A stretch of DNA of 25,095 nt, from contig DATHGS010000534.1 in assembly GCA_035490155.1 (NCBI GenBank), positions 1 to 25,095 of the forward strand, written 5' to 3'. Positions 8,201 through 9,258 of this stretch are shown one piece after another (positions within the stretch are counted from its first letter, which is position 1; every line of letters starts with the position of its first letter). Made by a program: the position numbers and the translations under genes. This DNA is from Candidatus Methylomirabilota bacterium (lineage in GTDB: Bacteria > Chloroflexota > Limnocylindria > Limnocylindrales > CSP1-4). Under the pieces are notes generated by a model. That model was not told the DNA's origin. It saw only the letters and a program-made list of their open reading frames with translations, and ran no database searches.

Positions 8201-9258
8201 GCCTGCTCGAAGCCTCCCGCGTCACGAAGCGGTTCGGCGGGCTCGTCGCCGTCAACAACGTCGACTTCACGATCCCGGAGAAGTCGATCGTCAGCCTCAT
8301 CGGGCCGAACGGCGCGGGCAAGACGACCTTCTTCAACATCATCGCCGGGATCTACGATCCGACTGCCGGCGAGATCGACTTTCACGGCCGGCGCGTCATC
8401 GCCCGGCCCAAGCGAGCCTGGCTCGAGCCCATCCTGTGGGTCCTGCCGGCATTGCTCGTCGCCATTTTGACCATCGGCTTTGGCGTCGAAGGACGAAGCG
8501 ACGGCTCGATCATCCTCGGGCTCGCGCTGACGGTCCTCGCGCTGATGGTCGTCCTGCTCATCGGCGTGGCGAGGCCCCCGAAGTATCAGCGCTTCCTCGT
8601 GCGGCTCGGCATCTTCAAGAGCGCCCGGCCGAACGACATGGTCGTCACCGGCCTGGGGCGGACCTTCCAGAACATCCGTCTCTTCCAGAACATGACGGCG
8701 ATGGAGAACGTTCTGGTCGGGATGCACACGAAGCTCGGCTCGACCTGGATCGACGCGATCCTCTCGACCCCGCGCGACCGGCGCGAGGAAGCAGCCGCCA
8801 GGGTCAAGGCCCGCGAGCTGCTTGCACTCGTCGGACTGAAGGGCCGCGACGACCAGCTCGCCAAGAACCTGCCGTACGGTGACCAGCGCCGTCTCGAGGT
8901 TGCGCGCGCGCTCGGCTCCGAGCCCGTCCTGCTGCTCCTCGACGAGCCGACCGCCGGGATGAACCCGCGCGAGACGCAGCAGCTCACGAGTCTCATCAGC
9001 CGGCTCCGGTCGGAGCTCGGGCTGACGATCCTCCTGATCGAGCACGACATGCGGGTGGTCATGGGGATCAGCGACCGTGTGACGGTCCTGGACCACGGCG
9101 AGAAGATCGCAGAAGGGACGCCCGACGAGGTCCGGCGCAACCCGAAGGTCATCGAGGCGTACCTCGGCACCCCGCCGGCCGAAGCGCCGGAGACGGAAAC
9201 GCCGGCCACAGCGGTCGCAGGGACGACGGGCCCGGTCGTCGAAGGGTCGGAGTCGTGA
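8197..9258 (+). CDS. livG: Branched-chain amino acid ABC ATP-binding protein LivG carrying an internal ~74-aa hydrophobic insertion
   Basis: GTGA overlap with livM; real start is 8197 inside ORF 6937..9258. GPNGAGKTT, RTFQNIRLF (Q-loop), LPYGDQRRLEVARAL, LLLDEPTAG, IEHDM and EAYLG. Confidence 0.92.
   Translation: MSLLEASRVTKRFGGLVAVNNVDFTIPEKSIVSLIGPNGAGKTTFFNIIAGIYDPTAGEIDFHGRRVIARPKRAWLEPILWVLPALLVAILTIGFGVEGRSDGSIILGLALTVLALMVVLLIGVARPPKYQRFLVRLGIFKSARPNDMVVTGLGRTFQNIRLFQNMTAMENVLVGMHTKLGSTWIDAILSTPRDRREEAAARVKARELLALVGLKGRDDQLAKNLPYGDQRRLEVARALGSEPVLLLLDEPTAGMNPRETQQLTSLISRLRSELGLTILLIEHDMRVVMGISDRVTVLDHGEKIAEGTPDEVRRNPKVIEAYLGTPPAEAPETETPATAVAGTTGPVVEGSES

Follow-up and report, generated by a model that had tools for sequence, protein, structure and literature searches.

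The stretch of DNA analysed here (the window) is 25,095 nucleotides (nt) long and makes up positions 1 to 25,095 of contig DATHGS010000534.1 in assembly GCA_035490155.1, a genome placed in the class Limnocylindria of the Chloroflexota. It contains a livK-H-M-G-F operon for an ATP-binding cassette (ABC) importer. One of the two ATPase genes, livG, encodes 74 extra residues between the Walker A motif and the Q-loop. These residues probably form a transmembrane (TM) helical hairpin with both ends in the cytoplasm (N-in/C-in), nested inside the nucleotide-binding domain (NBD) and tethering LivG beside the permeases LivH and LivM (LivHM). The ATPases of ABC importers are textbook soluble subunits, which dock on the coupling helices of their permeases. 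The operon (4478-10019, plus strand) is compact and translationally coupled; at the H/M, M/G and G/F junctions, start and stop overlap by 4 nt. Its genes are:

4478..5797, plus strand: livK-type periplasmic substrate-binding lipoprotein, 439 residues (Pfam Peripla_BP_6, 6.9e-31, and ANF_receptor; signal/lipobox-like N-terminus).
5895..6965, plus strand: livH permease, 356 residues (Pfam BPD_transp_2, 1.5e-44); its stop and the livM start share 4 nt.
6962..8200, plus strand: livM permease, 412 residues (BPD_transp_2, 2e-44); its stop overlaps the GTG start of livG as GTGA.
8197..9258, plus strand: livG, HAAT-family ABC ATPase with the insert, 353 residues (ABC_tran in two stretches, and BCA_ABC_TP_C).
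9255..10019, plus strand: livF, second ABC ATPase, 254 residues, without the insert; its GTG start and the livG stop share 4 nt.

The product of livG, which begins with GTG at 8197 and whose open reading frame ends at 9258, is a LivG-type HAAT ATPase (Transporter Classification 3.A.1.4) by every defining feature tested; the exception is the usual soluble, uninterrupted domain. Judging from family membership alone, its substrates would be branched-chain or other amino acids. PF12399 (BCA_ABC_TP_C) matches residues 302-325 at 53.8 bits, against a cut-off of 25.5. The ABC_tran match is split into two separate stretches; that of LivF is single and unbroken (residues 37-181), as expected from the initial annotation of this DNA, which saw no insert in LivF. 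The LivG signature YGDQRR (residues 227-232), the Walker B motif LLLLDEP (245-251) and the H-loop histidine H283 show no or almost no variation in alignments A1 and A2. F13 (A-loop), K42, Q158, Y227, R231, D249, E250 and H283 are invariant across both; the catalytic motifs of LivG are therefore intact, as had been proposed. The motifs that bracket the insert, and the parts of the insert itself, are (conservation within the insert refers to 45 non-redundant relatives):

8302..8325, plus strand: Walker A motif GPNGAGKT, residues 36-43, read from the sequence; invariant in A1 and A2.
8401..8430, plus strand: N-side cytoplasmic juxtamembrane motif A-R-P-K-R-A-W-L-E-P, residues 69-78; E77 invariant, R73, W75 and P78 nearly invariant.
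8431..8487, plus strand: hydrophobic helix 1, residues 79-97; mean Kyte-Doolittle hydropathy 2.5; inside modelled helix 74-96; W81 and P84 conserved, other positions I/L/V/F/A.
8488..8508, plus strand: short outside loop E-G-R-S-D-G-S, residues 98-104; variable in sequence, length ~7, mean net charge -0.8.
8509..8571, plus strand: hydrophobic helix 2, residues 105-125; mean Kyte-Doolittle hydropathy 2.98, Hessa-scale sum -4.7; inside modelled helix 102-125; G108, L116, L120/121 and G123 conserved.
8572..8622, plus strand: C-side cytoplasmic juxtamembrane segment R-P-P-x-Y...G-I-F-K-S with a short amphipathic helix, residues 126-142; R126, P127 and Y130 invariant, L134, R136, G138, F140 and S142 nearly invariant; modelled helix 128-136.
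8659..8670, plus strand: Q-loop motif RTFQ, residues 155-158; R155, T156 and Q158 invariant in A1 and A2, F157 invariant in A1 and nearly so in A2.

The insert is encoded by nt 8401-8622 and corresponds to LivG residues 69-142, exactly the 74 in-frame residues first quoted. It follows the second beta-hairpin downstream of the Walker A helix and precedes the short helix which enters the Q-loop strand; the Q-loop lies ~12-20 residues further on. From Walker A to RTFQ there are 111 residues, against 38 in canonical LivGs. Among the top 150 representative clusters (50% identity), nearly all insert-free LivGs have a spacing of 38, and the range across rows classed as insert-free is 37-52. The genome encodes a further LivG, a paralogue of 268 residues, whose spacing is likewise 38.

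The insert is a genuine part of the gene. The stretch 8150-8900 is nearly identical in 14 soil-metagenome runs from about ten studies. Three contigs from independent soil runs bridge both junctions (8332-8900, with 1 difference; 8308-8900, with 1; 8308-8834, with 3), and none contains an indel. Metagenome contigs pile up and break at the stretch coding for Walker A (8280-8340), where depth is in the thousands from unrelated ABC genes; because of these breaks at a hyper-repeated stretch, no single public contig spans the whole of livG. More than 100 near-full-length homologues (327-370 residues) in public metagenomes keep the insert in frame, and those with names are labelled Candidatus Limnocylindrales. 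Assembly chimera, against which the initial annotation had advised a check of the reads, and gene decay are both excluded by the junction-bridging contigs and the in-frame conservation.

A sample of 301 Chloroflexota genomes was searched for matches continuous across the insert. Fifteen other genomes have one, and all belong to the same class (10 to the same family, 2 to the same order and 3 to the class). The spacing in all 15 of these Limnocylindria-like orthologues is 110-114. Synteny is kept: livK-H-M-G-F is present at 14 of the 15 loci, and the fifteenth, cut by a contig end, has livM-G-F. Orthologues scored from other Chloroflexota (n = 21) have a spacing of 38 in 20 cases and of 72 in one. 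As far as sampled, the insert found in the window is confined to one Chloroflexota class, and it is at least a sequence family of its own. A contig of a related strain, assembled from a metatranscriptome library and indistinguishable from contaminating DNA, also covers the insert. It differs there at 14 positions, 12 of them third codon positions, which leads to 3 conservative amino-acid changes; at the sequence level, purifying selection on the insert is evident.

Several properties of the insert are those of a membrane hairpin. The hydropathy means given above are for 19-residue windows (residues 79-97 and 105-123), and the summed Hessa-scale values are negative. An AlphaFold 2 (AF2) model of LivG, built on a 95-sequence alignment, has a predicted local distance difference test score (pLDDT) of 89.8 and a predicted template modelling score of 0.82. 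It contains helices at 74-96 (23 residues) and 102-125 (24 residues) with a tight 5-residue turn between them; after these come an amphipathic helix at 128-136 and the usual pre-Q-loop helix at 145-151. Mean net charge in the 45 relatives is +2.1 for the N flank (residues 66-78), -0.8 for the loop, +4.8 for the C flank (126-145) and about zero for the helices. The Arg/Lys-rich flanks and positive-inside, N-in/C-in arrangement described in the initial annotation are borne out by these figures. The flanks are 85-87% identical among relatives; E77, R126, P127, Y130 and P145 are invariant, and R73, W75, P78, W81, P84, L116, G138, F140 and S142 are nearly so. The helix cores are 55-68% identical with exchanges confined to I/L/V/F/A, and the loop is variable. 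This substitution pattern is of the classical TM type: hydrophobicity is kept and identity is not, and the interfacial aromatic and basic residues are conserved.

Comparable inserts occur in other LivG lineages. In roughly 30 of the 150 representative clusters the spacing is enlarged and the same site shows two peaks of hydrophobicity. Three types can be distinguished. The short type (spacing 97-115) comprises the clade of the window and a few unrelated clusters. The mid type (spacing 125-129, ~87 extra residues) has an outside loop of ~35 residues with a conserved LW...NY.Y.Q.FPWGKA motif; named records are MAGs (metagenome-assembled genomes) labelled Planctomycetota/Fimbriiglobus, Hydrogenedentes, Eisenbacteria and Dongiaceae. 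The long type (spacing 180-362, 140-325 extra residues) has a hydrophilic region without a Pfam match between the helices, and its named records are from Pirellulales, Gemmataceae and Polyangia/Polyangiaceae. The two genomic contexts read among such inserts are ordinary livKHMGF operons. In a search of Planctomycetota with the insert alone, 6 of 201 genomes matched, several on the Q-loop part only, and the query is too insensitive for an estimate of prevalence.

In long-type LivGs (P0163, P0151, P0171 and relatives; loci L048, L053-L055, L060 and L061), a confidently folded alpha/beta domain of 140-290 residues, without a Pfam match, lies between the helices; it is presumably periplasmic. The AF2 model of P0163 (pLDDT 88.6) has a helix at 73-94, a small alpha/beta domain and a long helix at 227-275. 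This long helix takes in the second hydrophobic segment and continues directly into the pre-Q-loop helix, which suggests that the insertion point is near the membrane-facing side of the domain. The P0163 model is the best available argument for such a position. In ABC importers, MalFGK2 and ModBC among them, the Q-loop touches the coupling helix of the permease, a contact which such a position would fit. Two long-type proteins, P0241 and P0259, have a second hydrophobic insertion of ~50-70 residues after the Q-loop, at the LivG-specific helical-subdomain site (A1 columns ~610-705); judging from hydrophobicity, they may have four membrane helices.

Exactly the same Walker A-Q-loop site carries non-hydrophobic inserts of 10-34 residues in LivGs of other Chloroflexota, Lachnospiraceae, Bacillota and Spirochaetaceae (L031:609-1469 (G128); L065, L068, L091 and L097). 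The loop is therefore an insertion-tolerant hot spot. Many LivG-like representative hits are ~800-950 residues long with Walker A at about residue 360-450 (P0131, P0146, P0154, P0160 and others). Apparently these are LivM-LivG fusions, which would be a different route to a membrane-bound LivG.

A tree was built on the ABC core with the insert removed. The insert type of the window falls into a single clade (17 rows, support 98), which lies within the canonical LivGs. Apart from it, a second clade contains the main mid/long group (22 rows, support 95); other insert-bearing clusters are scattered. On the free tree, insert presence requires 9-10 state changes. A single clade of all insert-bearers is not rejected by the approximately unbiased (AU) test (p = 0.16). 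In a profile-profile comparison (hhalign), the insert of the window has no detectable similarity to the mid-type insert, and the two align only over the canonical RPxD...RTFQNIRLF part. Given the number of changes, the AU result and the lack of profile similarity, the inserts may have had either one origin or several. A search for an insert donor in the same genome (tblastn, relaxed settings) found none; the best hit (E = 0.04) is a generic hydrophobic similarity.

A mechanism can be proposed on the reading that the insert is an N-in/C-in membrane hairpin which tethers LivG beside LivHM. The first 68 residues of LivG would be made before the hairpin, which would then bring the nascent chain to the membrane. 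The hairpin would insert co-translationally via YidC or Sec, as expected of a hairpin with a short loop, and the remaining two thirds of the NBD would fold at the membrane. LivG would then be permanently tethered next to LivH and LivM, and the conserved basic juxtamembrane segments would provide a fixed neck immediately before the Q-loop. The likely benefit would be that LivG, one half of the heterodimer with LivF, is assembled obligatorily, asymmetrically and in the correct place; a direct mechanical link between a membrane element and the Q-loop is also possible.

Several points weigh against this reading or limit it. Support for membrane insertion is computational throughout. A complex prediction for LivH (residues 16-349), LivM (35-378) and LivG (4-325) scored 0.46, and a control in which LivM was replaced scored 0.52; this result counts neither for nor against docking. 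Helical periodicity of conservation is merely suggestive (p = 0.088 and 0.068), so that a specific packing face of the helices is not demonstrated. Crude helix counts give no gain or loss of helices in LivH or LivM of insert-bearing operons compared with canonical ones. The initial annotation had proposed a self-anchoring subunit which adds two helices to the membrane complex. The anchoring part of that proposal agrees with the hydropathy, charge, AF2 model and substitutions of the hairpin and with its domain-bearing relatives; joining of the LivHM bundle is not established by the complex scores. The existence of the insert, its conservation, its membrane-type sequence properties and the integrity of the catalytic motifs are shown; that the hairpin enters the membrane, touches LivHM or affects transport is an inference.

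LivH of the window has an extra N-terminal hydrophobic segment at about residues 17-41 (window 5895-6040, LivH residues 1-48), before the canonical start of the family. A comparable segment is found in ~9 of the 15 Limnocylindria orthologues and the remainder start canonically; the link to the LivG hairpin is not a strict one. A compensating change in the permease as a strict correlate of the insert was considered and rejected, as helix counts are equal and the extra LivH helix is present in only those ~9 orthologues. The source genome also contains part of another liv operon (L002:1-2298; genome G000, contig C352), an internal control which encodes the canonical LivG of 268 residues, a LivF of 234 residues and a LivH without the N-terminal extension. 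LivG of the window also has a C-terminal tail which is poorly conserved, or absent in relatives of 327-329 residues:

9181..9255, plus strand: Pro/Glu/Thr/Ala-rich C-terminal tail of LivG, residues 329-353 (25 residues), probably disordered; pLDDT 43-64, mean identity 0.41 among close relatives.

An unlikely alternative is that the hairpin serves mainly as a conduit for regulation or signalling and not as an anchor. It would intercalate in or beside the LivHM helices like the LptC helix in LptB2FGC, pass conformational or periplasmic information to the Q-loop and set ATPase activity; the short loop of the window would represent a cut-down version of the domain-bearing inserts. The closeness of the insert to the Q-loop suits such a role, as does the second helix of the mid and long types, which runs straight into the pre-Q-loop helix. 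The strong conservation of the mid-type outside loop points the same way, the folded domain of the long type suggests a job at the outer face, and the invariance of the juxtamembrane motifs in the type of the window goes beyond the needs of a passive tether. However, a loop of 7 variable residues cannot sense the outside, and the complex prediction does not demonstrate contact with LivHM. The insert also lacks detectable similarity to the mid-type insert, and function is therefore not transferable from those lineages, although a regulatory or coupling role is appealing for the relatives that carry a domain.

It is very unlikely that the hydrophobic pair does not span the membrane at all. It would then be a re-entrant or interfacial element, or an arm which packs in the cytoplasmic vestibule of LivHM or on the LivG/LivF dimer as a lid or plug. 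The insert does sit inside a cytoplasmic domain, its loop is very short, translocation of the loop has no experimental support, and the same site accepts non-hydrophobic inserts in other lineages. Against this, the modelled helices of 23-24 residues are long enough to cross a bilayer; their hydrophobicity is far over the usual threshold and they are essentially uncharged in the 45 relatives. Both helices have interfacial Trp, Tyr and Arg-Pro residues at their cytoplasmic ends, and the 140-290 hydrophilic residues between the equivalent helices elsewhere are hard to explain without full translocation. An artefact or decay (a chimera, mis-joined genes or a recent junk insertion in a dying gene), for which the fragmented state of the source MAG (591 contigs, 73% complete) might speak, has a negligible probability in view of the junctions bridged without indels in independent runs and studies, the insert kept in frame by >100 metagenome homologues and 15 genomes, the purifying selection and the intact catalytic motifs.

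The membrane-hairpin reading can be extended, in a form that is itself doubtful, to all nested LivG inserts. These might represent an unrecognised wiring of the cell exterior to an ABC ATPase, in which the hairpin is part of the LivHM assembly and influences the Q-loop through its cytoplasmic neck. Relatives with a domain would have a periplasmic module, perhaps touching the binding protein, which gates ATP hydrolysis; the form in the window would be minimal and constitutive, and would fix LivG asymmetrically on one permease.

The feature is widespread, and it appears to be unannotated and undescribed. The initial annotation did not recognise the architecture as described and allowed that it might already be a widespread, annotated feature of LivG. 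The search for homologues found it to be widespread (15 of 15 Limnocylindria-like operons carry the insert, and ~30 clusters have two-helix inserts at the same site), and it is clade-wide in its class with analogous inserts in other phyla rather than singular; no annotation or paper which names it was found. The matches from sequence and fold searches of the PDB are all ordinary ABC domains, ~230-375 residues long and lacking anything equivalent to the hairpin (TM-score by query <=0.62). AlphaFold DB clusters contain entries of similar length, named only "ABC transporter ATP-binding protein". As this name hides the feature, topology-based proteome classifications will misfile these ATPases. 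No description of a TM insert in LivG or any importer ATPase was found in full-text literature searches, which did not cover subscription journals or TCDB.

A conserved class of LivG with membrane helices inside the catalytic fold breaks the rule that these subunits are soluble, and relatives with a folded domain between the helices break it further. Such proteins raise the questions of how a split NBD folds around a co-translationally inserted hairpin, whether the helices join the permease bundle and whether periplasmic information reaches the Q-loop directly. A sequence search of solved structures found no homologue of a LivH/LivM-type permease, which makes insert-bearing LivGs informative targets for the whole family.

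Canonical LivGs, such as those of E. coli and Methanocaldococcus (MJ1267, PDB 1G6H/1GAJ), share with LivG of the window all ABC motifs, BCA_ABC_TP_C, the livK-H-M-G-F operon and a LivF partner; outside the insert, MJ1267 is among the best structural matches to the domain. They differ in being soluble domains of ~255 residues with a spacing of 38; of the 111 residues here, ~42 are in two predicted TM helices. The mid and long two-helix inserts resemble that of the window in insertion point, in the pair of hydrophobic helices, in the Arg-rich flanks on the cytoplasmic side and in the livKHMGF context. They differ from it in that they enclose either a conserved outside motif or a folded alpha/beta domain, and in that their second helix joins the pre-Q-loop helix directly; in the insert of the window the loop is 7 residues long, and the C side has an additional amphipathic segment of 19 residues.

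Fused permease-ATPase polypeptides (half-transporters and LivM-LivG fusions) also combine TM helices and an ABC domain in one membrane-bound chain. Their membrane domain is at one end of an unbroken ABC domain, whereas the helices here are nested in the fold and are too few for a permease. The TM helix of LptC lies at the periphery of the core permease in LptB2FGC and tunes ATPase activity, and is part of a separate polypeptide. Like the hairpin it is an extra helix beyond the core permease, but it does not belong to the ATPase, and the likeness is a functional speculation. The regulatory insertion in NBD1 of CFTR is hydrophilic, disordered, cytoplasmic and regulated by phosphorylation. Both it and the LivG insert are lineage-specific, are found in the antiparallel beta subdomain and leave the catalytic motifs in place; the CFTR insertion is located before Walker A, whereas the LivG insert comes after it and is hydrophobic.

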